NCBI GenBank assembly: GCA_965220565.1
Contig: CBDCQG010000001.1
Location: 691,473-755,472, forward strand
Source: Dehalococcoidia bacterium
GTDB taxonomy: Bacteria > Chloroflexota > Dehalococcoidia > UBA6926
Direction: 5' to 3'
Length of the DNA: 64,000 nucleotides
Shown here: one piece after another, positions 20,273 through 53,444 of the stretch
How the letters are laid out: each line of letters opens with the position of its first letter
Numbering within the stretch: position 1 is the first letter of the stretch
The notes under the pieces: generated by a model
What the model saw: only the letters and a program-made list of their open reading frames with translations
Told to the model about the DNA's origin: nothing
Database searches by the model: none
Position numbers and translations under genes: made by a program

Positions 20273-20896
20273 CTATCTGACGCTCCACCATTTCACAGGG
20301 TTGTCCATGTCCAGTTCCTCCAGCGTTTCAAGCCGGATGATCCGGATCTTTGGCTCCTCCCCGCGATTCACCTCAAGCAGCCCCACTGTCCCGACAAGAT
20401 GATCAAGGTTGTGGGGCAGGGTAGGGCTTCCCGGGTTCACGCACAGCACGTCCCTGACCGTAACGACCTCCTCCGTGTGCGTGTCTCCGAAGACGATGAT
20501 GTCCACGGCACGTCCGAACTCGTGACCCATCACGGATTCGATGGTGCGATGCGGTGGAAACTCCGGAATCGCCAACCCGTGCGTCAATCCGATGGAGAAT
20601 CCCTCAACCTCCATCACGCGTGTGCGTTCGATGCGCGGGTCCGTGATCTTCCGGAAGAAATCACCATTCCCCTCGCACGCGTACACGGGCGCGGCGCGTT
20701 CCAGATCATCGAGGCATGACGGGCTGTAGATGTCGCCCGCATGGAGGATGAACTCTGCCCCCGCGCCGGAGAAAATCTCCAACGCGCTCTCCGGCAGCGC
20801 CAACGGCGCCTCCGGCACGTGCGTATCGGAAATCAGGCCGATGATCAAAAGGGTGTCTCGGTCACTTCCTGAGGGTGACGCGGGCGTCCTTCTCAC
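20273..20896 (-). CDS. YfcE-like metallophosphoesterase (calcineurin-like phosphodiesterase)
   Basis: It has the GLISDTH and GD...HGH motifs. 207 aa. Confidence 0.7.
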   Translation of the reverse strand: MRRTPASPSGSDRDTLLIIGLISDTHVPEAPLALPESALEIFSGAGAEFILHAGDIYSPSCLDDLERAAPVYACEGNGDFFRKITDPRIERTRVMEVEGFSIGLTHGLAIPEFPPHRTIESVMGHEFGRAVDIIVFGDTHTEEVVTVRDVLCVNPGSPTLPHNLDHLVGTVGLLEVNRGEEPKIRIIRLETLEELDMDNPVKWWSVR

Positions 20897-22103
20897 CGAC
20901 GACTATTCGTGATACCCCCAGCAGCACCACGTCACGCAGAAGGGAATGAAGCGCCATGTCCTCATCCGCCAATTGCAGAAGAGACTCGATTGCTGCCGTT
21001 GCGCTCCCGTGCGTCCGTGTCGCGTCTCGCAGCCGCCCCGCCTCGTGGAAGAGCAGTTGCGCCGCCGACCGAATATCCTGCGCCGGAAGTCGGCCCTTCG
21101 ACGCCTCCCGGGCCAGGCTGCTTATCCGCAGATCCACTGCTGCCTCGATCCGTGAGGCGATCCCGTCGAGGCCGACCCGTGCCAGCACCGCCGCGTCCAA
21201 CTCTCGTGAACGCCGTGTGTGGTACGAGCAGCGCCCCTGGTTCGTCGCAGCCTCGCACTGGTAGTAGCGGTATGTGTTGGACCCTGACGACCCGTCATTT
21301 CGCGTCCATGATTGGCGGCGTGTCACGCCCACCATATTGCTGCCGCATGCGCTGCAGATCGCCGTGCCGGACAGGAGGTACGGCCTTCCTGCGCCGTATC
21401 CTGCGCGTTTTGCCCGCTCGTCAAGCCGATCCTGGATCTCCCTGAACAACGGAGTTGACACGAGGGCAGGATGGTTTCCGGCAACGCGCGCGCCCAACCG
21501 GTTGTAGGCGCCGGTGTAGACGCGGTTTCGCAGCATGTCACGGATCGTGACGATGCTCCACGCGCCTCCCCGGCGTGTTCGCAGCCCGCGGGAATTCAGT
21601 TCCGCCACAATGGCGCGAATGCCTTTGCCCTGTGCCGCAAGCCCAAAGATGATCTTGACGACGGTCGCTTCCTCGGGGTGTTCTTCCAACTGACCGCGGT
21701 CGCCCGTCTTGTATCCATACGGAATCCGGCCCAGAACGACGCCGCGCAACGCCTTGCGCGCCATGCTCTGCCGGATCATCTCTCCCCGGTCTGAAGGCGC
21801 TGTGCCATTTTCGGGCGTCAGGGCGATCTCAAGCGGATGCCCCTGCGCTTCCACGGAGATCAGCTCAACGCCCATCGCTTCCAGGCGCAGCAGCTCTTCA
21901 ATGAGCCGGACCCGGGGAATACGATCCCCCGGTGAGATCATCACGGAGACCCCGGCCGTCTCTTTTTCCTCGATGAGTCGTTGGCGCAGAGCCCAAAAGC
22001 CGTCCTCGGTTGCCGCGTACATCCCGTCGAACGGCGCGTTGCCCTTTTCAGCCGCGCGATCAAGATCGCGGCGGTCTCCCACGCCAAATATGATACTTGC
22101 CAC
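20862..22103 (-). CDS. Large serine recombinase family protein (resolvase domain + recombinase domain + zinc ribbon), N-terminal catalytic motif apparently degenerate
   Basis: It has the resolvase-like VMISPGDRIPR block and a recombinase domain (IPYGYK...GAWS...IRDMLRNRVYTG). A C..C....C zinc-ribbon region is present. The expected N-terminal (Y)ARVST(D/E)Q nucleophile motif is absent, replaced by IIFGVGDRRDL. It overlaps the downstream gene by 35 nt. Confidence 0.6.
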   Translation of the reverse strand: MASIIFGVGDRRDLDRAAEKGNAPFDGMYAATEDGFWALRQRLIEEKETAGVSVMISPGDRIPRVRLIEELLRLEAMGVELISVEAQGHPLEIALTPENGTAPSDRGEMIRQSMARKALRGVVLGRIPYGYKTGDRGQLEEHPEEATVVKIIFGLAAQGKGIRAIVAELNSRGLRTRRGGAWSIVTIRDMLRNRVYTGAYNRLGARVAGNHPALVSTPLFREIQDRLDERAKRAGYGAGRPYLLSGTAICSACGSNMVGVTRRQSWTRNDGSSGSNTYRYYQCEAATNQGRCSYHTRRSRELDAAVLARVGLDGIASRIEAAVDLRISSLAREASKGRLPAQDIRSAAQLLFHEAGRLRDATRTHGSATAAIESLLQLADEDMALHSLLRDVVLLGVSRIVVGEKDARVTLRK

Positions 22104-22230: not shown

Positions 22231-24252
22231 ATGAAAGCCAGCAGAAAGAAACACCGCCGCTTTCCTCCGCGAAGCGGCAAGACCCCCACTCCTGACAGCC
22301 CGCCGCAGCGACTCACGCTTGAACTTGAGCGCCCAGGCCATCAGGGTGAGGCCGTCGGACGCCGTGACGACGGGAAGATCGTCCTGGCCGCGTATGGCAT
22401 TGCGGGCGAGCGTGTCGTCGTTGACGTACGTGAGGAGCATCCGACGTACATCGTTGCCGAAGTCGTAGAAGTCCTGCGGTCGTCGCCGGAGCGCGTAGAG
22501 CCACGCTGCCCGCACTTCGGCGCGTGCGGCGGGTGCCAGCTCCAGCACATCTCATATGACGAGCAGGGCAGGATCAAGAGACGTGTCGTTGCCGATCAAC
22601 TCCGCCGTATCGGGCATATCGTCGATCCGCCCGTTCGTCCCATCCTTGCCGCTGAAGACCCCTGGAATTACCGCAACAATGCGCGATTTACGGTGCGGAG
22701 AGAAGGCGCAACCGGATTCACTCATTGGCACACCCACCGGTTCGAGCCCATCGATGAGTGCCTGATCATGGACCCGCGCATCAACGATATCAAGCGCAAG
22801 CTGGATGGCGCGCTAACCAACCGCGAGCGTCAGCTTGCCGTCCGCATCGGCCGCAACACGGGAGACACGCTTATCCATCCCGCCCTCAACGGCCGCAGCG
22901 ATGAACGAGGTGTCGAAACCGGCCAGGGTTCGTATGAGGAGCGGCTGTTCAACGTGCCGTTCAGGGTGTCCGCCGCCTCCTTCTTCCAGGTCAACACCGT
23001 CCAGGCAGAGCGCATGATGGCTCTCGTCCGGGATCGCCTCCAACCCACGTCGTCTGGCGTCATCGTTGACGCCTATGCAGGTGTCGGCACGATTGCCGCT
23101 CTTATTGCCCCGATGGTCGGGCGCGTCATCGCCATCGAGGAATCCGCCGCCGCTGTCCGCGATGCCGAAGTCAATCTCGCGCCGTTCCCCAACGTTGAAA
23201 TGGTTCTGGCCAAGACGGAAGAGGCCCTGCCGGAACTTGATGAGCGCGTCGATGCCGTTATCCTCGATCCGCCGCGCGCCGGCTGCTATCCCGAGGTCAT
23301 CGATGCGCTGCGGCGACTCCGACCCCGCCGCGTCGTCTACGTTTCCTGCGACCCCGCCACCCTCGCCCGCGACCTGAACCGCCTGATCCTCTACGGCTAC
23401 ATGCTGACCGACGTCACACCCGTCGATATGTTTCCCCACACCTATCACATCGAGAGCGTTTCGACGCTGGAGCGGATGCCGCCGGACGGCTTCATCCTGG
23501 CCTCCACCTCGGCCCGCCGCCGTGAGATCCTCACCCACCACAACACACCCTTCGCCGCCCTGGCCCCCGCCGCCAACATTGAGCCGGACATTGCGCAACC
23601 GAACCCGGAAACGTTCGCAGACCCCATCTCCTACACCCGGCACCTCGCCCTCAGAAAAGCCCAATCCGTGGCGAGTGAAAGCGCAACTGTCCCAATCGTT
23701 GGCGCGGACACCGTCGTTGTCGCCCCGGATGGCCGCATCCTCAACAAACCACAAGACGCTGATGAGGCCCGCCGGATGCTCCGGACGCTTCGGGAGGGAG
23801 ACCACCAGGTCATCACCGCGATCGCCGTCATCCCACCTCAAATTCTCCGTCATTCCCACATCCCCGCCAGCCATTCCCGCGAAGGCGGGAATCTGAATCC
23901 CGATTTGCCAACCCCACCGCCTATCGTCGACCATCTTGTGACCACAGGCCGGATGCGCGACTACACCGACGCGGAAATCGAGGACTACATCGCCACCGGC
24001 GACCCGTTCGATAAGGCAGGCGCGTACGGCATCCAACACCCGGAATTCCGACCCGTCGCAGAACTCAGCGGCTGCTATCTGAACGTCGTCGGCCTCCCCC
24101 TCTGCCTGCTGGATCGATTACTGACCCAGGCAGGAACCCGCGCATCTTTCCCGCATTCCGGCGAAAGCCGGAATCCATCCGTCCCCGAACCCCGTGATGG
24201 CCACTGCGACTACTGCGCCCAACGCACGCCGCCACATCTCAGGATGCCCTGA
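22231..24252 (+). CDS. In-frame fusion: 23S rRNA (uracil-5)-methyltransferase RlmD/RumA (TRAM + MTase, 4Fe-4S Cys cluster) fused to Maf nucleoside-triphosphate pyrophosphatase
   Basis: The RumA motifs are CPHFGACGGCQ, the SAM site DAYAGVGT, and DPPRAG...VYVSCDP. The Maf motifs follow with no stop: FILASTSARRREIL ... GADTVV ... DKAGAYGIQ. The called ORF starts at 22135. MKAS at 22231 is more plausible. The C-terminal approximately 25 aa are encoded by an interspersed repeat. Confidence 0.7.
   Translation: MKASRKKHRRFPPRSGKTPTPDSPPQRLTLELERPGHQGEAVGRRDDGKIVLAAYGIAGERVVVDVREEHPTYIVAEVVEVLRSSPERVEPRCPHFGACGGCQLQHISYDEQGRIKRRVVADQLRRIGHIVDPPVRPILAAEDPWNYRNNARFTVRREGATGFTHWHTHRFEPIDECLIMDPRINDIKRKLDGALTNRERQLAVRIGRNTGDTLIHPALNGRSDERGVETGQGSYEERLFNVPFRVSAASFFQVNTVQAERMMALVRDRLQPTSSGVIVDAYAGVGTIAALIAPMVGRVIAIEESAAAVRDAEVNLAPFPNVEMVLAKTEEALPELDERVDAVILDPPRAGCYPEVIDALRRLRPRRVVYVSCDPATLARDLNRLILYGYMLTDVTPVDMFPHTYHIESVSTLERMPPDGFILASTSARRREILTHHNTPFAALAPAANIEPDIAQPNPETFADPISYTRHLALRKAQSVASESATVPIVGADTVVVAPDGRILNKPQDADEARRMLRTLREGDHQVITAIAVIPPQILRHSHIPASHSREGGNLNPDLPTPPPIVDHLVTTGRMRDYTDAEIEDYIATGDPFDKAGAYGIQHPEFRPVAELSGCYLNVVGLPLCLLDRLLTQAGTRASFPHSGESRNPSVPEPRDGHCDYCAQRTPPHLRMP
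23848..23902. repeat. Interspersed palindromic repeat (family A: CGTCATTCCCGCGAAAGCGGGAATC-like), in-frame inside the maf coding region
   Basis: ccgtcattcccacatccccgccagccattcccgcgaaggcgggaatc encodes an extra 'SHIPASHSREGGNLNPD' segment, absent from canonical Maf proteins. Confidence 0.7.
24147..24186. repeat. Interspersed palindromic repeat, family A copy (forms the 3' end of the rlmD-maf ORF)
   Basis: tttcccgcattccggcgaaagccggaatccatccgtcc. Confidence 0.6.
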
Positions 24253-26231: not shown

Positions 26232-26278
26232 TTTCGTTGTTTCTCCTTACCTTGCTGTCGAGAGTCTAATGAGTTCTG

Positions 26279-26325
26279 GATTCCCGCTTTCGCGGGAATG
26301 ACGGGTAGGGCGGCGGGAATGACGC
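26279..26325. repeat. Interspersed palindromic repeat, family A copy (inverted orientation), intergenic
   Basis: ggattcccgctttcgcgggaatgacgggtagggcggcgggaatgacg. Confidence 0.65.
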
Positions 26326-26332
26326 TGGTTGG

Positions 26333-28816
26333 TCACACCAGCGCTCCGCTCTCCGTGAGGTTCTTGATTTCGTCGTCGCTCAAACCGATGACGTTGCGGT
26401 AGATGTCGTCACTGTGTTGGCCGGAGGTTGGGGCAGGGATGTCTGACTGCCCGGGAGTGTCGGACAGGCGCGCGCTGAGAGCGGGGTGTGTAAGCGGCGG
26501 CGACGCGTCCCACGGCGCGGGGGGTTGAACGGTGACGACGGAGCCGCGTTCTCGCAGGTGCGGGTCCCACACCAGCTTGTCCGGCCCCTGGTCCATTCCC
26601 GCCGGGACGCCGTGGCGATGGAGCCGGTCGAAGACCTGCTGCGGGTTCATCCCGGCCGTCCATTCACCGATGCGGCTGTCAAGTTCCTCCTTGTTCGCTA
26701 ACCGGCCCTCCAGCGTGTCCCATTTGCTGTCCTGCGCCCATGCGGGCGACTCCATGGCCACAACGAGCCGCCGCCAATCGTCGTCGTCGCGGCAGACGAT
26801 GGCGCACCACGCATCATGGCCGATGCACGCATAGACCTCGTGCGGGGCAAATCGCTCTGAGTTGTTGCCGTTCGCGACGGCGTCCACGCCGTTGATCGTG
26901 TAGTCCATGTAGAGCACACCCAGCGTGGAGGCAAGACCCTCAAGCTGGGCCACTTCGATGAACTGACCCTCGCCGGTCTGCGTCCGGTGTTCAAGCGCGG
27001 TCAGGATCGCGCCAACGGTGGCGGAACCGGCGACGTAGTCGGTATAACCGAGCTTTGGACGGGTGGTCATAGTGCTGTCTTTGTGACCCCAGATGTAACC
27101 GAGCCCGCAGAAGCCGAAGATCATCTGGCCATAGGTGATGTAGTGGTGCGCCGGGCCGGTCAGGCCCAAGCCGGGCATCTGGACGGCGATGATGTCCGAT
27201 TTCACCTTTTGCAGATCATCGTATCCGAGACCCATGCGATCCATGACGCCCGCGCGCCAGTTATCGATGACAACGTCTGATTCGGCAATGAGCCGCTTGA
27301 CGACGTCCAGTCCCTCGGGGTGCTGGGCGTTGATGGTCACGCTGCGCTTGGCGCGATTGAGTTCCGCGAATCCGCCGGTGTCCGGCCTGCGCGGCTGCGG
27401 GTGAGCATCCGTCTCCACCTTGATGACATCCGCGCCCAGGAAGGCGAGGAAACCGGTGGCAACGGGCCCAGCAACGGCCTGCGTGAAATCGACAACGCGG
27501 ACTCCATCCAGAGGCTTGGGAACGTGGGCGTTTGAGACACCGTTCTGTGCGCCGGCGGGGACGGCCGCCTGCTGCCCTCTCTCCTCTTGGGAGAGGGTTG
27601 GGGTGAGGGCCTCCGCCAAAACGTCGTCGGTGTGTTGGCCGACGGAGGGCGCAGGGCGGCGGACGCCCCACGGCGTGCGTGACATGCGGAACGGCGCGCC
27701 GGCAGTGCGATACGTGCCGATAACAGGATGCTCAAGGTTCTCGAACCAGTCGCGAGAGTTCGGGTGCGGATGATTCATGAAGTCGGAAATCTTGTGGATG
27801 GCCGTTGAGGGAATGCCGCGCCGCTGACCTTCGTCCACGAAGTCTTCGGTGTCTAACTGGGCAATGAAGTCCACCATCACGGCGTCGATCAGGTCGATGT
27901 TCTCGCGCCGCCAGACGGGATCGAGCATGTTCTCCGGCGTAACGTCATCCGACTCCATCCAGTCCGCGAGACGCGTGTAATGCCGATCCATATAGGTTGA
28001 GGTCTGGACAAAGCCGCCGTCTTTCGTTTCAAAGATGGACACGCCGGGGTTGCTTGGCGCGGAACCGGCGCGCCTCCTGATGTACTGGGAGAACGAATAA
28101 TCGCCCAGCACGATCATCAGCTGCCACAGGCCCACGTCCTGCAATGAGATGTCCACCTGCTGCCCACGGCCTGTAAGGTGACGGGCGCGCACGGCGGCCA
28201 TAACACCGAGAACCGTATGGAACCCCGCAACGCGGTAGAGCTGCTCCACCGGAACGAGGCATGGGCGCTCCTCGCTGTCGCCGTGGATATACATGACGCC
28301 CGTCATGGCCTGCACGGTCAGCTCCGTGCCGACATGGTCCTTGCGCGGGCCGGTGCGGCCATAGGGACTGATTGCCGCGTGAATCAGGCGGGGATTGGCG
28401 GCTGAGAGGTCTGCGTAGCCGATGCCAAGATCATCGAGGTAGGTCCTGTTGAAGCATTCAACGACCACGTCCGCTGTGGCGGCGAGGCGGCGGAGGGACT
28501 CGCGGCCATCGTCCGTTTCAAGATCGAGGACAACGCTGCGCTTGTTGTGGTTATCGGAAATGAACGGGATGCTCCGCTCAGGATCAGGCGTGTTGCCGGC
28601 AAACGGGGCCCGGTTGCGGAGGGGATCGCCGCCGGGCGGCTCTATCTTGATGACGTCCGCGCCGAGGTCGCCAAGCAGGCGCGTAGCGAACTGCGGCGTT
28701 GGGCCGCCGAGGTCGAGGACCCGCAGGTGTCCAAGCGCTGCGGCGTCGCGTCCATCCTGGTCAGTCATGACAGTCTCCCCCTGTTCTGCCACATCTGCCG
28801 ATTGTGCGCGTATCAT
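26333..28816 (-). CDS. Tandem (duplicated) family III CoA-transferase (CaiB/BaiF-like), two complete domains in one 827-aa polypeptide
   Basis: Domain 1 is LRVLDLGGPTPQFATRLLGDLGADVIKIE. Domain 2 is VRVVDFTQAVAGPVATGFLAFLGADVIKVE. They are joined by the linker ALTPTLSQEERGQQAAVPAG, which is encoded by a family-B interspersed repeat. Confidence 0.75.
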   Translation of the reverse strand: MIRAQSADVAEQGETVMTDQDGRDAAALGHLRVLDLGGPTPQFATRLLGDLGADVIKIEPPGGDPLRNRAPFAGNTPDPERSIPFISDNHNKRSVVLDLETDDGRESLRRLAATADVVVECFNRTYLDDLGIGYADLSAANPRLIHAAISPYGRTGPRKDHVGTELTVQAMTGVMYIHGDSEERPCLVPVEQLYRVAGFHTVLGVMAAVRARHLTGRGQQVDISLQDVGLWQLMIVLGDYSFSQYIRRRAGSAPSNPGVSIFETKDGGFVQTSTYMDRHYTRLADWMESDDVTPENMLDPVWRRENIDLIDAVMVDFIAQLDTEDFVDEGQRRGIPSTAIHKISDFMNHPHPNSRDWFENLEHPVIGTYRTAGAPFRMSRTPWGVRRPAPSVGQHTDDVLAEALTPTLSQEERGQQAAVPAGAQNGVSNAHVPKPLDGVRVVDFTQAVAGPVATGFLAFLGADVIKVETDAHPQPRRPDTGGFAELNRAKRSVTINAQHPEGLDVVKRLIAESDVVIDNWRAGVMDRMGLGYDDLQKVKSDIIAVQMPGLGLTGPAHHYITYGQMIFGFCGLGYIWGHKDSTMTTRPKLGYTDYVAGSATVGAILTALEHRTQTGEGQFIEVAQLEGLASTLGVLYMDYTINGVDAVANGNNSERFAPHEVYACIGHDAWCAIVCRDDDDWRRLVVAMESPAWAQDSKWDTLEGRLANKEELDSRIGEWTAGMNPQQVFDRLHRHGVPAGMDQGPDKLVWDPHLRERGSVVTVQPPAPWDASPPLTHPALSARLSDTPGQSDIPAPTSGQHSDDIYRNVIGLSDDEIKNLTESGALV
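27575..27610. repeat. Interspersed repeat, family B (CTCTTGGGAGAGGGTTGGGGTGAGGGC-like), inside the CoA-transferase inter-domain linker
   Basis: ccctctctcctcttgggagagggttggggtgagggc. A near-identical copy is at 53410-53444, and a related one at 44590-44620. Confidence 0.65.
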
Positions 28817-29440: not shown

Positions 29441-30592
29441 CTAGACGCCAAGCGGTCGTCGGGCGTGTTCCAGATGTCCGACGTGGTGGCTTTCCTCATC
29501 GCATAGCTGAGTGGAGCGTTCGAGCTGCACGGTTACGTGGTCAATGCCATATCTTTGCTTGACAATGTCCTGCATCTGCTGAAGAAGTTCCTGATCGGAG
29601 CCCGGGTGCTCAGGTTCGATGAGCACGTGCGCGGTGAGCACCTCGTTGCCGGACGTAATCGTCCACACGTGCACGTCATGAATGACGGTCACCCCCGGCA
29701 GTTCTTCGATATCGGAGCAGAGTTTGTAAACGTCGATGTGCTCCGGCACTCCTTCCAGCAGCACGCGGAAGACCTGCATCACCAGGCTCCATGAGCTATA
29801 GAGAATGAGGAGGCCGATGACCACGCTGAGGATGGGGTCGATCAGCGTCCAGCCCGTCAGGATGATGACGATGCCTGAAATGACGACACCCACGGAACCC
29901 ATCAGGTCTGCCAGCACGTGCTGGAATGCGCCCTCCACGTTGATGCTGTGGCCGGATGAGCGGTGGAGAATCCATGCGGCGACAATGTTGACCAACAGAC
30001 CGCCGATACCGACGAGCAGAACCGGCCAGCCGTCCACATGGTGTTCGTCACGGATGAATCTGTGGTACGCCTCCCAGAAGATCCACCCGACGATCAGCCA
30101 CAGCGCCAGGGCGTTCATCAACGCCGCGAGTATCTCCGTTCGGTAGTAGCCGTACGTGCGCTCGATGGTGGCGCCGCGCTCCGCGATCCACATGGCGAAC
30201 AGCGCCATGCCGATTGCCGCGGCGTCCGTGAGCATGTGCCCGGCATCCGCGATGAGCGCCAGGCTTCCTGAAACGACGCCCCCGATAACCTCCGCGACCA
30301 TATAGGTCGAGATGAGGATCAGCGCAAAGAAGAGATTGCGGCGGCTTGCTCCCCGGAGATCGTGGGCGTGATCGTGGCCCGCGTGGCCGTGTCCATGGTC
30401 ATCATGGTCGTGGTCGTCGTGGCCGTCATGATCGTGGCCATCGTGGGTGTCATGGTCGTGGTCATCATGGGCGTCATGGTCGTGGTCATCATGGGCGTCA
30501 TGGTCGTGGTCATCATGAGCGTCATGATCATGATCTGCGTGTCGATGGTCTTCCTGGTCACTGCGAGCCATGGCGCTTCCGTCCCCTCTCAC
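29441..30592 (-). CDS. Cation diffusion facilitator (CDF) family metal efflux transporter with long His/Asp-rich N-terminal tail
   Basis: It has the CDF TM core (IADAGHMLTD, HVWTITSG) and the C-terminal cytoplasmic domain. The N-terminus carries about 60 aa of (H-D-D-H-D-H-D-A)n. Confidence 0.85.
   Translation of the reverse strand: MRGDGSAMARSDQEDHRHADHDHDAHDDHDHDAHDDHDHDAHDDHDHDTHDGHDHDGHDDHDHDDHGHGHAGHDHAHDLRGASRRNLFFALILISTYMVAEVIGGVVSGSLALIADAGHMLTDAAAIGMALFAMWIAERGATIERTYGYYRTEILAALMNALALWLIVGWIFWEAYHRFIRDEHHVDGWPVLLVGIGGLLVNIVAAWILHRSSGHSINVEGAFQHVLADLMGSVGVVISGIVIILTGWTLIDPILSVVIGLLILYSSWSLVMQVFRVLLEGVPEHIDVYKLCSDIEELPGVTVIHDVHVWTITSGNEVLTAHVLIEPEHPGSDQELLQQMQDIVKQRYGIDHVTVQLERSTQLCDEESHHVGHLEHARRPLGV
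30355..30540. repeat. 24-bp tandem repeat within the CDF gene (catggtcgtggtcatcatgggcgt x3 plus degenerate copies) encoding the HDDHDHDA repeats
   Basis: There are three perfect copies at 30451-30522, with decayed copies on both sides. Confidence 0.8.
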
Positions 30593-42887: not shown

Positions 42888-44504
42888 TTGACCGGCCGGC
42901 TTAGCTACAGTTGGGGACTACTCCGCGGCGATGTTCTTGGCGGCCTGACCTCCGGCAGCATCGTTCTTCCTGCGGCAATAGGCTACGGCGTGATCTCCGG
43001 GCTTGGCCCCGTTGCGGGTCTGTACGGCGCGGTGGCTGTCAGCTTCTTCGGAGCCATCTTTGGCGGAACACGGGGCATGATCTCCGGCCCGAACATCCTG
43101 GTGACGCTGACGATGGCAGTGACCGTATCGCATTACGCGACGAGCCTCGGCGAAGCATTTCTCGCCGCGATCCTGGCGGGGCTCATCCAGATCGGTTTCG
43201 GCGCTCTGAAGATCGGCCGGTACGTGTCCTACATTCCATACTCGCTTATCGCGGGTTTCTTCACGGCCTTCGGCATCATATTGATCCTGAAGCAGTTCCT
43301 GCTTGGGCTTGGCGCATCAGTGGCCGGCAGCGCCCTGGACAACATCCGCGCATTGCCGGATGCGTTTAGAGAGCCCAACGTGGAAGCCGTTATCGTCACC
43401 GTCCTCAGTGTTGCGCTGGGGGTAGCGTGGCGAGGAAGGCTCCTGAAGATCGCTCCCTCCCAATTCGCCGTGTTGGTTTGCGGAACCGTCACGGCGATTC
43501 TCCTCTTCCAGGGAGCGCCGACGATCGGAGAGATCCCCCGAGAACTCCCCGCGCCGCAACTGCCCGCGCCTGACGTGGACACGCTTCTGCGGATTGCCCA
43601 GCCCGCCTTTGCCATGGCGCTGCTCAGTTCCCTGTCCACGCTCATCGTCGCGCTGCCCCTGGACACCATTACCGGCACGCAGCACAAACCAAACAGGGAA
43701 TTGATTGCTCAAGGCATGGGCAATATCGGCGCGGGACTCATCGGCGGCTTGCCGGGCGGCGTATCCTCCGGCACGTTCGCCGGCGCCTTCAGCGGGGCGC
43801 GAACCCAGGTAGCCGGGCTGACCGTCACGGTACTCATCATCTCCATCATCTTCGTCCTTGGGCCGATTGCGGAGCGCATTCCTCTTGCCGTCCTTGCGGG
43901 CATCCTCATCATCAACGGCTGGAGCATCATCGATTGGCGATTCATCAAGCGGCTGCATCGCGTGCCCGTCGACTACACAATCGTCATGGCCCTGACCTGC
44001 CTCCTTGTGCTCTTTGTGGACATCACTCTCGCCGTGTTTGTTGGCTTTGTCGTGTCATCCCTGGCCGGCGCGCGGCGACGTGGAGAACTGGAAACCCAGG
44101 ACCTCATCTCAATCCCGGTCCTTGACAGCGTGCTGCTTGACGGCGACGAGGCAGACCCGTTTGAGGCGCGCGCCGGCATCGTCATCTTCCCAGATCGCGT
44201 CACGGTGGCCTCAACCCGTGAGGTGAGCCGCATCGTCCGCTCCGACATCCTTGGGCATCAGATCGTCATCTTCGATATGTCCCGCACGTACTTCATTGAC
44301 GATTCCGCGGCCGTGGCGATAGGGGACCTGATCAGGATTGCGGCCGTTCGCCGGCCGGGACGTGTTGTCATCACGGGATTGACGAGGCCGGTCACGGAAA
44401 CCCTCGATGCGTTCGGCCTGCGCGCTGCGATGCCGGACGGGTTGATTATTCCGGACATGGACGCCGCGAGAGCCAGGGTGCGCGACCTGCTGACGAGCAA
44501 GTAA
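42888..44504 (+). CDS. SulP family anion (sulfate/bicarbonate) permease with C-terminal STAS domain
   Basis: It has the SulP TM core (GMISGPN...) and a STAS domain at the C-terminus. It is divergent from the PKS gene. Confidence 0.75.
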   Translation: MTGRLSYSWGLLRGDVLGGLTSGSIVLPAAIGYGVISGLGPVAGLYGAVAVSFFGAIFGGTRGMISGPNILVTLTMAVTVSHYATSLGEAFLAAILAGLIQIGFGALKIGRYVSYIPYSLIAGFFTAFGIILILKQFLLGLGASVAGSALDNIRALPDAFREPNVEAVIVTVLSVALGVAWRGRLLKIAPSQFAVLVCGTVTAILLFQGAPTIGEIPRELPAPQLPAPDVDTLLRIAQPAFAMALLSSLSTLIVALPLDTITGTQHKPNRELIAQGMGNIGAGLIGGLPGGVSSGTFAGAFSGARTQVAGLTVTVLIISIIFVLGPIAERIPLAVLAGILIINGWSIIDWRFIKRLHRVPVDYTIVMALTCLLVLFVDITLAVFVGFVVSSLAGARRRGELETQDLISIPVLDSVLLDGDEADPFEARAGIVIFPDRVTVASTREVSRIVRSDILGHQIVIFDMSRTYFIDDSAAVAIGDLIRIAAVRRPGRVVITGLTRPVTETLDAFGLRAAMPDGLIIPDMDAARARVRDLLTSK

Positions 44505-44529: not shown

Positions 44530-44625
44530 CCCACTCCGTCATTCCCGCTCCCACTCCGTCATTCCCGCGAAAGCGGGAATCCAGAATCCCCTCCCCCTTG
44601 ATGGGGGAGGGCTAGGGTAGTGTTA
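44530..44625. repeat. Composite interspersed repeat locus: two family-A half/full copies followed by a family-B-like palindrome (CCCCTCCCCCTTGATGGGGGAGGG)
   Basis: ccactccgtcattcccgctcccactccgtcattcccgcgaaagcgggaatccagaatcccctcccccttgatgggggagggctagggtag. Confidence 0.7.
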
Positions 44626-50708: not shown

Positions 50709-51065
50709 ATGCCCATTTACGAGTACACGTGCAAGGATTGCGACAAGCGCTCCACCACCTTCTATAAGGTCATCCCGGAGGAACTGCCCACGGAGCAGGA
50801 ATGCGCCCACTGCGGTTCCACCAAGACCGAGAAGGTCATGTCCCGCGCCGCCTACGTTCGCTCAACCGCCTCTCGGCATGAGGCCTCCGGTGATCCCGAC
50901 GCCCCCGGCTACGATTACTGGCGCGACCCCTCGAACATCGGACGATGGGCAGAGAAGCGCATGGACGAGGCGGGCATTGAGATGCCCGACCGCGTCAAGG
51001 AGATGATCGGCCAGGCCCGCGAGGGCGAAGTCGACAAGATCCTCGACAAGCGCGGCCTGGACTAG
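50709..51065 (+). CDS. FmdB-family zinc-ribbon protein (paralog, longer C-terminal tail)
   Basis: MPIYEYTCKDCD...CAHCGS. 118 aa. Confidence 0.75.
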   Translation: MPIYEYTCKDCDKRSTTFYKVIPEELPTEQECAHCGSTKTEKVMSRAAYVRSTASRHEASGDPDAPGYDYWRDPSNIGRWAEKRMDEAGIEMPDRVKEMIGQAREGEVDKILDKRGLD

Positions 51066-51069
51066 CCCC

Positions 51070-51094
51070 CAGTCATTCCCGCGAAAGCGGGAAG
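51070..51094. repeat. Interspersed palindromic repeat, family A copy
   Basis: cagtcattcccgcgaaagcgggaag. Confidence 0.65.
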
Positions 51095-51107
51095 AGGAGA
51101 AACCGGA

Positions 51108-51938
51108 ATGTCCTTGATCCCGCCTACATTCCTGGACAAGGTCGTCGCGCTGGGCACGCCGGACAAGGACGGAAACATACGGTACGCCGCCTCCGGCTTC
51201 TTGTACGGGCAGCCTTCAGGGAACCAGGGTCGATACTACGTTTACCTGGTCACGAATCGGCACGTTGTGAAAGGGATACGCAGCCCGCAGATACGCTTCA
51301 ATGCGCTTGCCGGGACTGCTCCGAAGATACTGCCTTTGCCTCCAAATGATGACGGACCGAACGATCACTGGATCTTTCATCCTGACCCGGATGTCGACGT
51401 TGCCGTTCTGCTGATAGACTCACTTGGTCAAGCCCTGAAAGATGTGAAGATGGCGTTCTTCACGGGAAACGTGCAGACGGAACGCCTGGAGTCCATGAAG
51501 AGCGGTTCCGTTTCAGAGGGAGACGAAGTCTATGTGCTCGGTTTCCCTCTTGGACTGGCCGGCGCTGAACAGAACTATGTGATCGTGCGGCAGGGAGTCA
51601 TCGCCCGGATTCAGGACTGCTATGAGCAGCGCTCCAAGGAATTCCTGATTGATTCGTTTGTCTTTCCGGGCAATAGCGGAGGCCCGGTCATTCTCAAGCC
51701 AACCATGTTCTCGTATGGCCAGACGCGCCCGGACCCCAAGTTGATAGGCGTTGTGGCTGCTTATCAGCCGTTCGTTGACGTCGCTCTCAGTGAGCAGACC
51801 GGAACTCCCAGGCTGATCGTCCAGGAGAACTCCGGACTTGCCACGGTGATTCCCGTCGATCTGATCCAGGAGACCGTTGAATTGGCGGCGGAACGGTATG
51901 GGATTACCCAACCATCCCCGTCCGTCATTCCCGCGTAA
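51108..51938 (+). CDS. Cytoplasmic trypsin-like (S1/Trypsin_2 type) serine peptidase, no signal peptide
   Basis: The catalytic triad context is LVTNRHVV (His), DVAVLLI (Asp) and GNSGGPV (Ser). 276 aa. It is flanked on both sides by family-A repeats. Confidence 0.65.
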   Translation: MSLIPPTFLDKVVALGTPDKDGNIRYAASGFLYGQPSGNQGRYYVYLVTNRHVVKGIRSPQIRFNALAGTAPKILPLPPNDDGPNDHWIFHPDPDVDVAVLLIDSLGQALKDVKMAFFTGNVQTERLESMKSGSVSEGDEVYVLGFPLGLAGAEQNYVIVRQGVIARIQDCYEQRSKEFLIDSFVFPGNSGGPVILKPTMFSYGQTRPDPKLIGVVAAYQPFVDVALSEQTGTPRLIVQENSGLATVIPVDLIQETVELAAERYGITQPSPSVIPA

Positions 51939-51947
51939 GCGGAAACC
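51921..51947. repeat. Interspersed palindromic repeat, family A copy (degenerate)
   Basis: tccgtcattcccgcgtaagcggaaacc, overlapping the protease stop. Confidence 0.55.
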
Positions 51948-52104
51948 TGGCACGGATTAACTAACCCAACCCGCTACACCACCCTCCCTCCTGTATCCTT
52001 ATAGCTGAGCGTCGCTGGCACTCCCGGTGTCGCTTGCCGCGCAGTATTCACCCTGATTGCAATGGAGGCCTCGCCACGTGACCATTGAGCCGACGCTGAC
52101 TGAT

Positions 52105-53409: not shown

Positions 53410-53444
53410 CCCCTCTTCTGACGGGAGAGGGTTGGGGTGAGGGC
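53410..53444. repeat. Interspersed repeat, family B copy, intergenic between glyQS and the sbcD-like gene
   Basis: cccctcttctgacgggagagggttggggtgagggc. Confidence 0.65.

Follow-up and report, generated by a model that had tools for sequence, protein, structure and literature searches.

What does it mean that one open reading frame (ORF) of an uncultured member of the Chloroflexota carries both an enzyme that methylates ribosomal RNA and an enzyme that hydrolyses nucleoside triphosphates, and how did copies of a palindromic repeat come to lie within its coding sequence? The gene that raises these questions stands in a 64,000-nt stretch of a Dehalococcoidia bacterium contig (CBDCQG010000001.1), referred to below as the window, and joins an RlmD/RumA-type 23S rRNA 5-methyluridine (m5U) methyltransferase to a YhdE-type Maf pyrophosphatase. 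Our answer, which we consider likely to be right, is that loss of the stop codon between two linked neighbours would have given rise to a bifunctional RlmD-YhdE/Maf protein, and that the Maf loops of this protein carry tolerated, selection-filtered, in-frame repeats of the NTS (Neisseria Transformation Sequence) or CGTC type.

The fused gene and its two enzymes

The ORF listing gives a single unbroken frame from the ATG at 22231 to the TGA at 24250–24252, encoding 673 amino acids (aa). The protein is laid out as an RlmD/RumA-type part (aa 1–415), a five-residue linker, a YhdE-type Maf domain (aa 421–636) and a Cys-containing tail. Pfam matches to tRNA_U5-meth_tr (PF05958, aa 242–415) and Maf (PF02545, aa 421–633, E 2.5e-43), together with NCBIfam domain calls, uphold the proposal of a first-pass annotation that the RumA frame passes stop-free into a complete Maf domain. 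The end of the RumA part (...HIESVSTLER) continues without a break into MPPDGFILASTSARRREIL; the frame crosses from HIESVSTLER through MPPDG to FILASTSARRREIL, and the peptide across the RlmD-Maf junction reads ..STLERMPPDGFILASTSAR. We modelled the fused protein with AlphaFold2, using a 102-sequence alignment as input, and obtained a predicted local distance difference test (pLDDT) score of 89 and a predicted template modelling (pTM) score of 0.90, with a pLDDT of ~96 for junction residues 411–430. The pTM of the model suggests a fixed inter-domain arrangement. No solved chain spanning both the RlmD and the Maf halves was found among the Foldseek matches, and no further maf or rumA copy was found within the window.

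The N-terminal half matched the NCBIfam rumA equivalog model TIGR00479 with 294.6 bits, against a cutoff of 183.55. A second model, NF009639, remained below its own threshold (247 against a cutoff of 458), and the Pfam TRAM match to a TRAM-like barrel at aa 27–79 was sub-threshold (18.4 against 21). Foldseek recovered the three-domain RumA fold (TRAM, central and catalytic) for this half of the model, with RlmCD (5zq0) and RumA (2bh2/1uwv) matching at target template modelling (TM) scores of 0.80–0.83 and E values of 1e-38 to 1e-41. The best structural matches are to RlmCD, and RlmCD-type dual specificity is possible for the modelled enzyme. Across the 102 sequences, C93, C99, C102, C177, C373 and E408 are invariant, as are the S-adenosylmethionine motifs DAYAGVGT and DPPR and the SCDP motif that holds the nucleophile C373. 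From the RumA structures 1UWV and 2BH2, we take C93, C99, C102 and C177 to be [4Fe-4S] ligands, C373 to be the nucleophile and E408 to be the base. Separately, we observed that the protein opens with a strongly basic peptide, MKASRKKHRRFPPR (22231–22272), which is modelled as disordered (pLDDT 37–50). This peptide is kept in relatives down to ~44% identity (MKSSRKKHRRF), and E. coli-type RumA is without it.

The C-terminal half exceeded the cutoff of the NCBIfam maf model TIGR00172 (122.5 against 117.15), and its top sequence match in the PDB was YhdE (4p0e, E 1.1e-23). Foldseek matched it to Maf structures including YhdE, Bacillus subtilis Maf and ASMTL-Maf, with target TM scores of 0.77–0.90. 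The Maf signature S-R-E-K-D-K is present (S427, R430, E451, K476, D493 and K506), and all of these residues but the Glu are invariant in the 102 sequences. Also present is the triad R-T-Q (R429, T494 and Q602), which defines the YhdE subfamily as against the W-Q-E of YceF (PMC3899018). Members of the YhdE subfamily hydrolyse dTTP, UTP, CTP, m5UTP, pseudo-UTP and m5CTP, and dTTP and UTP are the suggested in vivo substrates of E. coli YhdE (PMC3899018). The catalytic residues of both halves, that is, the RumA set and the YhdE-type signature, are intact.

The Maf half holds four conserved Cys residues (24073–24216) that are lacking from ordinary Maf proteins (YhdE and B. subtilis Maf): C615 and C625, in the motif G-C-Y-L-N-V-V-G-L-P-L-C, and C659 and C662, in a C-x2-C motif. 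The ligand set co-varies among relatives. Specifically, ~20 sequences have C-x2-H in place of C-x2-C, relatives in which C625 is replaced by Trp gain a new Cys (G-C-Y-C), and Ktedonobacteria have C-P-C-C or C-x5-6-C. Judging from this pattern of conservation, the four Cys residues may form a structural site for Zn (or Fe-S) that is peculiar to the Maf proteins of Chloroflexota, both fused and free-standing.

Distribution and possible meaning of the RlmD-Maf pair

We searched a collection of 5.8 billion proteins and examined the best 120 matches. Both PF05958 and PF02545 were present in 116 of these 120, at 43–90% identity and in many independent assemblies, and the collection includes a 100% identical protein (P0001). 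The matches that carry source names are Dehalococcoidia or Chloroflexi proteins from metagenome-assembled genomes (MAGs), with the named relatives at 46–47% identity; the public labels of these fused proteins of ~600–700 aa reflect one half only, either 'RlmD' or 'Maf'. The junction, STLER-xPxDGF[I/V]LASTS, is read through in every member of a 25-sequence alignment and of the 102-sequence alignment, so that no stop follows RumA in any of these relatives. In a library clustered at 50% identity, the junction is spanned by ~7 full-length and ~8 truncated representatives.

We also scanned 80 loci from GTDB species representatives with profiles of both halves, covering a 3-kb neighbourhood. Close relatives (>70% identity) are not among these loci and were retrieved individually. 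Fused rumA-maf genes were found at five of the 80 loci, from Chloroflexota, SAR202 and Dehalococcoidia MAGs. At a further 16 loci, all from Chloroflexota, rumA is followed by a separate maf ORF on the same strand; this ORF overlaps rumA or starts within ~120 nt of it in 15 cases, and lies ~500 nt downstream in the other (L010). The loci with separate genes come from Dehalococcoidia, SAR202, an 'Anaerolineaceae' MAG, a 'Chloroflexia' MAG and Ktedonobacteraceae MAGs, and in the cultured isolate Ktedonobacter robiniae SOSP1-30 rumA and maf are adjacent yet separate. No maf was found within 3 kb of rumA at the remaining 59 loci, which comprise 27 from Chloroflexota (Anaerolineae, Thermoflexia and others) and 32 from other phyla (Bacillota and others) or unassigned to a phylum. 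Since other Chloroflexota carry the two as separate genes side by side, Rosetta-stone logic applies, and the description of the gene as a Rosetta-stone fusion in the first-pass annotation is borne out. The distribution of fused, linked and unlinked states indicates that the pair is a Chloroflexota-specific linked unit that is fused in some lineages. A rough neighbour-joining tree of the RumA half shows the fused and separate forms intermixed (fused P0054, for instance, lies beside separate L007 and L008), which suggests several fusion or fission events.

A check for an internal start at ATG 23485 (Met419) had also been suggested. GGAG is present 3 nt upstream of this ATG because the conserved L-E-R codons produce it, and Met419 is replaced by Leu, Ile or Ala in relatives. 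We therefore ruled out a conserved internal start at this position.

Across several Chloroflexota classes, rumA and maf are same-strand neighbours, with stop and start codons often overlapping or close, and we propose that in parts of the Dehalococcoidia-like lineages the intervening stop was lost, after which the fusion would have been kept over deep divergence. In such a protein, an rRNA m5U writer would be co-expressed one-to-one with a member of the subfamily that hydrolyses m5UTP, dTTP, UTP and pseudo-UTP, and the pairing would prevent m5U nucleotides that rRNA turnover sets free from entering the NTP pool. Coupling of this kind between rRNA methylation and m5UTP clean-up is plausible from the family assignments, and we stop a little short of favouring it. 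A Maf-methyltransferase fusion is on record in eukaryotes (ASMTL), as is linkage of maf to methyltransferase genes in archaea (PMC3899018), and the general theme is therefore already known; our literature searches did not find an RlmD/RumA-Maf fusion with this partner and domain order.

An alternative is that the fusion is real yet functionally neutral, with the Maf half doing general dTTP/UTP house-cleaning or cell-division-related work that is unrelated to m5U. The interleaving of fused and unfused proteins on the RumA tree points to easy gain and loss, the linkage is limited to one phylum, and YhdE-type enzymes also act on dTTP and UTP, the suggested in vivo substrates in E. coli (PMC3899018). 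By contrast, neutrality sits poorly with the adjacency of the pair in classes as distant as Dehalococcoidia/SAR202 and Ktedonobacteria, with the persistence of the fusion down to ~43% identity, with the independent origin of Maf-methyltransferase association in eukaryotes (ASMTL) and archaea, and with the fixed inter-domain arrangement suggested by the pTM of 0.90. On balance, we regard a neutral fusion as somewhat unlikely.

That the read-through is a one-off lesion, or a sequencing or assembly error that removed the rumA stop from what are truly two genes, would agree with the separate neighbours at 16 other Chloroflexota loci and with the GGAG that precedes ATG 23485 by 3 nt, but is extremely improbable given the read-through in 116 of the best 120 matches, from independent assemblies at 43–90% identity, and in every member of both alignments, the lack of conservation of Met419, the L-E-R codons that account for the GGAG, and the pLDDT of ~96 at the junction. 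The RlmD-Maf fusion is real and lineage-conserved, and a sequencing error or one-off lesion is excluded.

NTS-type repeats in the Maf half

The first-pass annotation had reported a 'family-A' palindromic repeat in this DNA. Allowing up to three mismatches to the 22-mer core, we observed six copies in the window, against 0.00 expected, indicating that the repeat is real. What the annotation did not recognise is that the family has already been described: by its sequence, 'family-A' is the known CGTC-tagged REP/dRS3/NTS family. The NTS consensus, CGTCATTCCCGCGMAVGCGGGAATCYRG (28 nt), has a CGTC tag, a palindromic stem and a trailing C, and the two perfect intergenic copies (Table 1) read CGTCATTCCCGCGAAAGCGGGAATCCAG. 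NTS embeds dRS3, ATTCCC-N8-GGGAAT, and is the site at which the GIY-YIG nuclease SsnA binds and cleaves single-stranded DNA (ssDNA); in Neisseria, the GTC directly upstream of the palindrome governs SsnA cleavage, and SsnA binding depends critically on the C that follows the palindrome (PMC11893778). CGTC-tagged REPs, among which CGTC-1 is the dRS3 of Neisseria and the RPE-6 of Rickettsia conorii, occur in frame within genes and had no dedicated transposase; in a 2013 survey, CGTC repeats came to light in five phyla, with Chloroflexi not among them (PMC3733652). The main text of the 2025 NTS/SsnA paper makes no mention of Chloroflexota (PMC11893778), and a literature search on repeat-derived peptides (IPAFAGMT and similar) found nothing.

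All six copies in the window are co-oriented with the gene that contains them or directly precedes them. Three lie in intergenic DNA just past stop codons, one gives C-terminal codons and a stop, and two lie inside the RlmD-Maf gene. The intergenic copies carry one upstream half-site at a spacing of 20–21 nt. The copy that gives a stop does so for ORF 51108–51938, whose GNSGGPV motif marks it as a trypsin-like serine protease and which ends in ...PSPSVIPA inside the NTS copy. The TAA of this ORF falls in the hairpin loop, which reads GTAA and not GAAA, so that the repeat truly supplies the stop there.

The first of the two copies inside the RlmD-Maf gene, hereafter insertion 1, is a single block of 66 nt (22 codons) with boundaries within 23838–23910. 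We used syntenic orthologues as references, L001 (87% nucleotide identity), L086 and L084, and the 66-nt block is missing in all three. The block consists of a tag half-site, CGTCATTCCCAC (23848–23859), and, 21 nt downstream, an NTS-like unit (23869–23896) that matches the consensus at 25 of 28 positions. The hairpin of this unit, ATTCCCGC-GAAG-GCGGGAAT, has its 8-bp stem and tetraloop intact (−16 kcal/mol), and the whole has the full composite form of the intergenic copies. Insertion 1 encodes ..QILRHSHIPASHSREGGNLNPD.., and the peptide reads ..EGGNLNPDLPTPPPIVDHLVTTGR. In the AlphaFold2 model it is a coil (pLDDT 50–57) between strands 524–534 and 565–575, that is, a low-confidence loop between confidently modelled strands; the HMMER alignment to YhdE breaks at the same place, where query residues 122–150 face YhdE residues 112–114, a hairpin turn of 1–2 residues. 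The earlier proposal of an in-frame repeat at ~23845–23900, absent from the nearest orthologues and located in a loop, thus stands, but the number of added residues is 22 and not ~16. A split of insertion 1 into 45 + 21 nt, as drawn by MAFFT, was rejected as an alignment artefact, since a single 66-nt block fits equally well or better.

Host codons that resemble the tag, GCC GTC ATC CCA CC (A-V-I-P-P), lie 22 nt before the first inserted half-site. L082 (P0012) and L083 (P0016), which are more distant from the window, carry inserts of the same family at the same position, in the same orientation and in the same frame, and sisters both of L082/L083 and of the window protein are without an insert at this position. 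Insertion 1 lies in frame within a conserved gene and is lacking from the three syntenic orthologues, and the catalytic residues of the protein are intact.

The second intragenic copy, insertion 2, extends over ~24143–24178. Its hairpin is a variant, ATTCCGGC-GAAA-GCCGGAAT (−15.4 kcal/mol, z −3.0), in which two mismatches to NTS are a compensating C>G/G>C pair, so that the stem is preserved. We observed insertion 2 in L001 (P0002), L086 (P0003) and P0013 as well, and found it to be absent in P0012, P0016, P0022, P0024, P0025 and others. The first-pass annotation had held that this copy supplies the last ~25 codons and the stop. However, relatives that lack the repeat, such as P0012, P0016 and P0022, still have both the tail, G-x-C-x-Y-C-x-x-R-T-P-P-x-L-x-x-P, and the stop, indicating that insertion 2 is an internal linker segment that creates neither the C-terminus nor the stop. 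It lengthens the linker by ~8–10 residues, with pLDDT <50 at 641–655. In L086 and L083, the ATTCCGGC..GCCGGAAT variant unit also occupies a different site, site A; on these sequences, the variant is a propagating subfamily.

Within the clade of at least 70% identity, we observed patchy repeat-derived inserts in three Maf loops, after residues ~454, 536 and 644. By contrast, there were no repeat inserts in more distant fused homologues (<70% identity). The insert peptides include HSGESRNPS and HSRE(G/S)GN (frame 3), VIPANAGIS (frame 1), VIPSAAEESK (from a related GTCATT..GGAATC family) and a Gly-rich type. All inserts seen are in the forward orientation; the forward strand is stop-free in three frames, and the reverse strand has one stop. 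At site A of L085 (P0025; gene ~1368–1497, locus ~2368–2497), five to six tandem 21-nt tag units (CCGTCATTCCCACCACCCCCT, PSVIPTT) are followed by a complete NTS hairpin. As 21 is divisible by three, an array of this period can lengthen or shorten without a shift of frame.

Two other types of insert were seen. A second hairpin family, TGTCATT(C/T)CGAGCGCAGCCGAGGAATC, read as VIPSAAEESK, is present in the same Maf loops of L084 (P0010; gene ~1476 and site C), P0013, P0014 and P0020. A third, Gly-rich type (LPPGGGRPGLGG) is present in P0018 and P0019, and may relate to the window repeat D5 (27576–27610 and 53410–53444).

We propose that the Maf half of the window's close clade has been colonised by CGTC-tagged dRS3/NTS-type hairpins in three length-tolerant loops, and that only frame-preserving insertions would survive selection. 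The window protein would then hold one 66-nt copy of its own, in a beta-hairpin turn, and another that is older and common to relatives, in the linker before the Cys tail. Both intragenic copies are most likely tolerated passengers and not functional additions.

A bolder pair of proposals, which we think unlikely, concerns both the fusion and the repeats. The rumA-maf linkage and repeated fusion would mark m5U nucleotides from rRNA turnover as the physiological substrate of YhdE-type enzymes, and the NTS/CGTC repeats would be still active, homing to host mimics of the CGTCAT(T)CCC tag. The mimics would be, at site B, the AVIPP codons GCC GTC ATC CCA and, at site A, the SVIP codons, and growth by ~21-nt (7-codon) tag units would keep the frame. 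If the first proposal is true, the rigid two-domain arrangement and the Cys4/Cys3His tail would reflect mechanistic coupling, for example with Maf near the site of ribosome assembly. If the second is true, the repeat would be a coding-compatible mobile hairpin that diversifies protein loops.

The repeat segments might instead be functional, either as new interaction loops or as sites kept for an Ssn-type nuclease that modulates recombination at the gene. We consider this improbable. Presence and absence are patchy even between sister sequences, insert lengths and families differ, distant fused homologues are without inserts, and the segments are predicted to be disordered (coil, pLDDT 44–57). 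Both intragenic copies do keep the 8-bp hairpin and the trailing C critical for SsnA binding, the hairpin of the second has been preserved through a compensatory double change, and the same three sites have been hit repeatedly, all as expected of a function; however, the ATTCCGGC..GCCGGAAT subfamily spreads at other sites, so conservation of the hairpin need not mean selection here. As for the idea that the segments are ordinary low-complexity loop expansions that resemble a repeat by chance, the loops are Pro/Ser-rich and length-variable in all relatives, but six copies of the 22-mer core against 0.00 expected, the composite architecture (half-site, ~21 nt, tag and hairpin) that insertion 1 shares with intergenic copies, and the presence of the same DNA motif in relatives in two reading frames (HSRE/HSGE and VIPANAGI) leave it scarcely credible.

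Several observations weigh against the reading of a bifunctional protein with tolerated repeat insertions. The activities of both enzymes, and with them the m5UTP link, are assigned from family signatures. Frameshift artefacts may account for some of the 'separate' MAG loci, and, with the linkage confined to Chloroflexota and the two states interleaved, the fusion may be a near-neutral result of translationally coupled neighbours and not of selected coupling. Both intragenic copies are without the GTC directly upstream of the palindrome. Lastly, a genome with NTS would be expected to encode a matching Ssn nuclease of the GIY-YIG type (cd10448), in many cases with the repeat at its flanks, and a crude regex motif scan, which gives a weak negative, found no GIY-YIG Ssn gene in the 64-kb window.

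Table 1. Positions in the window of the fused gene, its parts and the NTS-type repeat copies
Feature	Position	Strand	Basis or remark
Whole fused gene, 673 codons + TGA	22231..24252	+	ORF listing, domain matches
RlmD/RumA-type 23S rRNA m5U methyltransferase module, aa 1–415	22231..23475	+	TIGR00479, PF05958, invariant residues, Foldseek
Junction R-M-P-P-D, five residues, includes ATG 23485 (Met419)	23476..23490	+	Read through in all aligned relatives
YhdE-type Maf nucleoside-triphosphate pyrophosphatase domain, aa 421–636	23491..24138	+	Pfam, YhdE alignment, Foldseek
Insertion 1, in-frame, 66 nt, ends ambiguous by ~7 nt	23838..23905	+	Absent from L001, L086, L084
Insertion 2, second in-frame NTS-type unit, encodes ..PHSGESRNPS..	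24151..24178	+	NTS 23/28, hairpin
Conserved C-terminal tail, C659-x2-C662 + stop; host sequence, not repeat	24190..24252	+	Kept in repeat-free relatives
Intergenic perfect NTS; CGTCATTCCC half-site 21 nt upstream	26276..26303	-	28/28
Intergenic perfect NTS, ~50 nt past stop of ORF 42888–44504; half-site precedes	44557..44584	+	28/28
Degenerate copy directly past stop of ORF 50709–51065	51071..51098	+	23/28
Copy giving last codons (..SVIPA) + TAA stop of ORF 51108–51938	51923..51950	+	25/28

Directly upstream of the fused gene, and divergent from it, lies a 413-aa serine-recombinase-like gene (20862–22103, minus strand), with Recombinase and Zn_ribbon_recom domains in relatives. The position of this gene is kept in all six of the close relatives examined, indicating that it is not a recent mobile arrival. 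At 30360–30554 of the window, units of the GTGGTC/ATCATG type are densely repeated in tandem (9/15 nt, with a period of 24 nt); the probable product is a low-complexity stretch rich in His/Asp or in Val/Met, according to the strand.

Significance and comparison with known systems

The ingredients of this locus are already known, namely Maf-methyltransferase association, CGTC/dRS3/NTS repeats and in-frame REP/RPE insertions. What appear to be new are the RlmD-Maf architecture with its Chloroflexota-wide distribution as operon or fusion, the presence of perfect NTS units in this phylum, and the repeated colonisation of three loops within one orthologue. What Maf does physiologically is debated, with cell-division arrest and house-cleaning of modified NTPs as the two positions. 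A conserved operon or fusion with an rRNA m5U writer is a concrete, testable genomic argument for m5UTP clean-up, and the fused enzyme is a natural bifunctional protein with which to test that role. The locus also extends the dRS3/NTS (CGTC-REP) family, recently tied to Ssn ssDNA nucleases, to uncultured Chloroflexota, and its three loops, several subfamilies and insert-free sister alleles make up a compact comparative series for the entry and persistence of hairpins in coding sequence.

The RlmD half shares with E. coli RlmD (RumA) and Streptococcus pneumoniae RlmCD a TRAM-like domain, the four Fe-S Cys residues, the SAM motifs, the SCDP Cys and the Glu base. Unlike those enzymes, the window protein adds a C-terminal Maf domain and the conserved basic N-terminal peptide MKASRKKHRRFPPR, and its predicted target uridine could be U1939, U747 or both. 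The Maf half has in common with E. coli YhdE and B. subtilis Maf (BSU28050) the S-R-E-K-D-K signature and the R-T-Q triad, with target TM scores of 0.83–0.90, but it is fused to a methyltransferase, its tail has a putative four-ligand Cys(His) site, and it has repeat-derived loop insertions of 22 and ~8–10 residues. In human ASMTL the domain order is the opposite, with Maf at the N-terminus, and Maf is joined to an O-methyltransferase-like domain, whose substrate is unknown, where the window protein has an rRNA m5U methyltransferase; the two fusions have independent origins.

For the repeats, the closest parallels are in Rickettsia and Neisseria. As reported from Ogata et al. 2000 in PMC3733652, Rickettsia RPE-4 and RPE-6 are in-frame CGTC palindromes that add 20–30 extra residues, sometimes twice per gene. 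They have in common with the window copies that in-frame CGTC palindromes lie in genes for conserved proteins and that the protein is presumed functional. The organism and lifestyle differ, and in the present case one orthologue has been hit recurrently at three loops by several subfamilies in genomes closely related to each other. Neisseria dRS3/NTS and the window copies have in common the CGTC tag, the ATTCCCGC/GCGGGAAT stem, the orientation and a mostly post-gene placement. By contrast with Neisseria, no ssnA gene was seen in the window by the crude regex scan, the host is an uncultured member of the Chloroflexota, and the tag half-sites form arrays with a period of ~21 nt.

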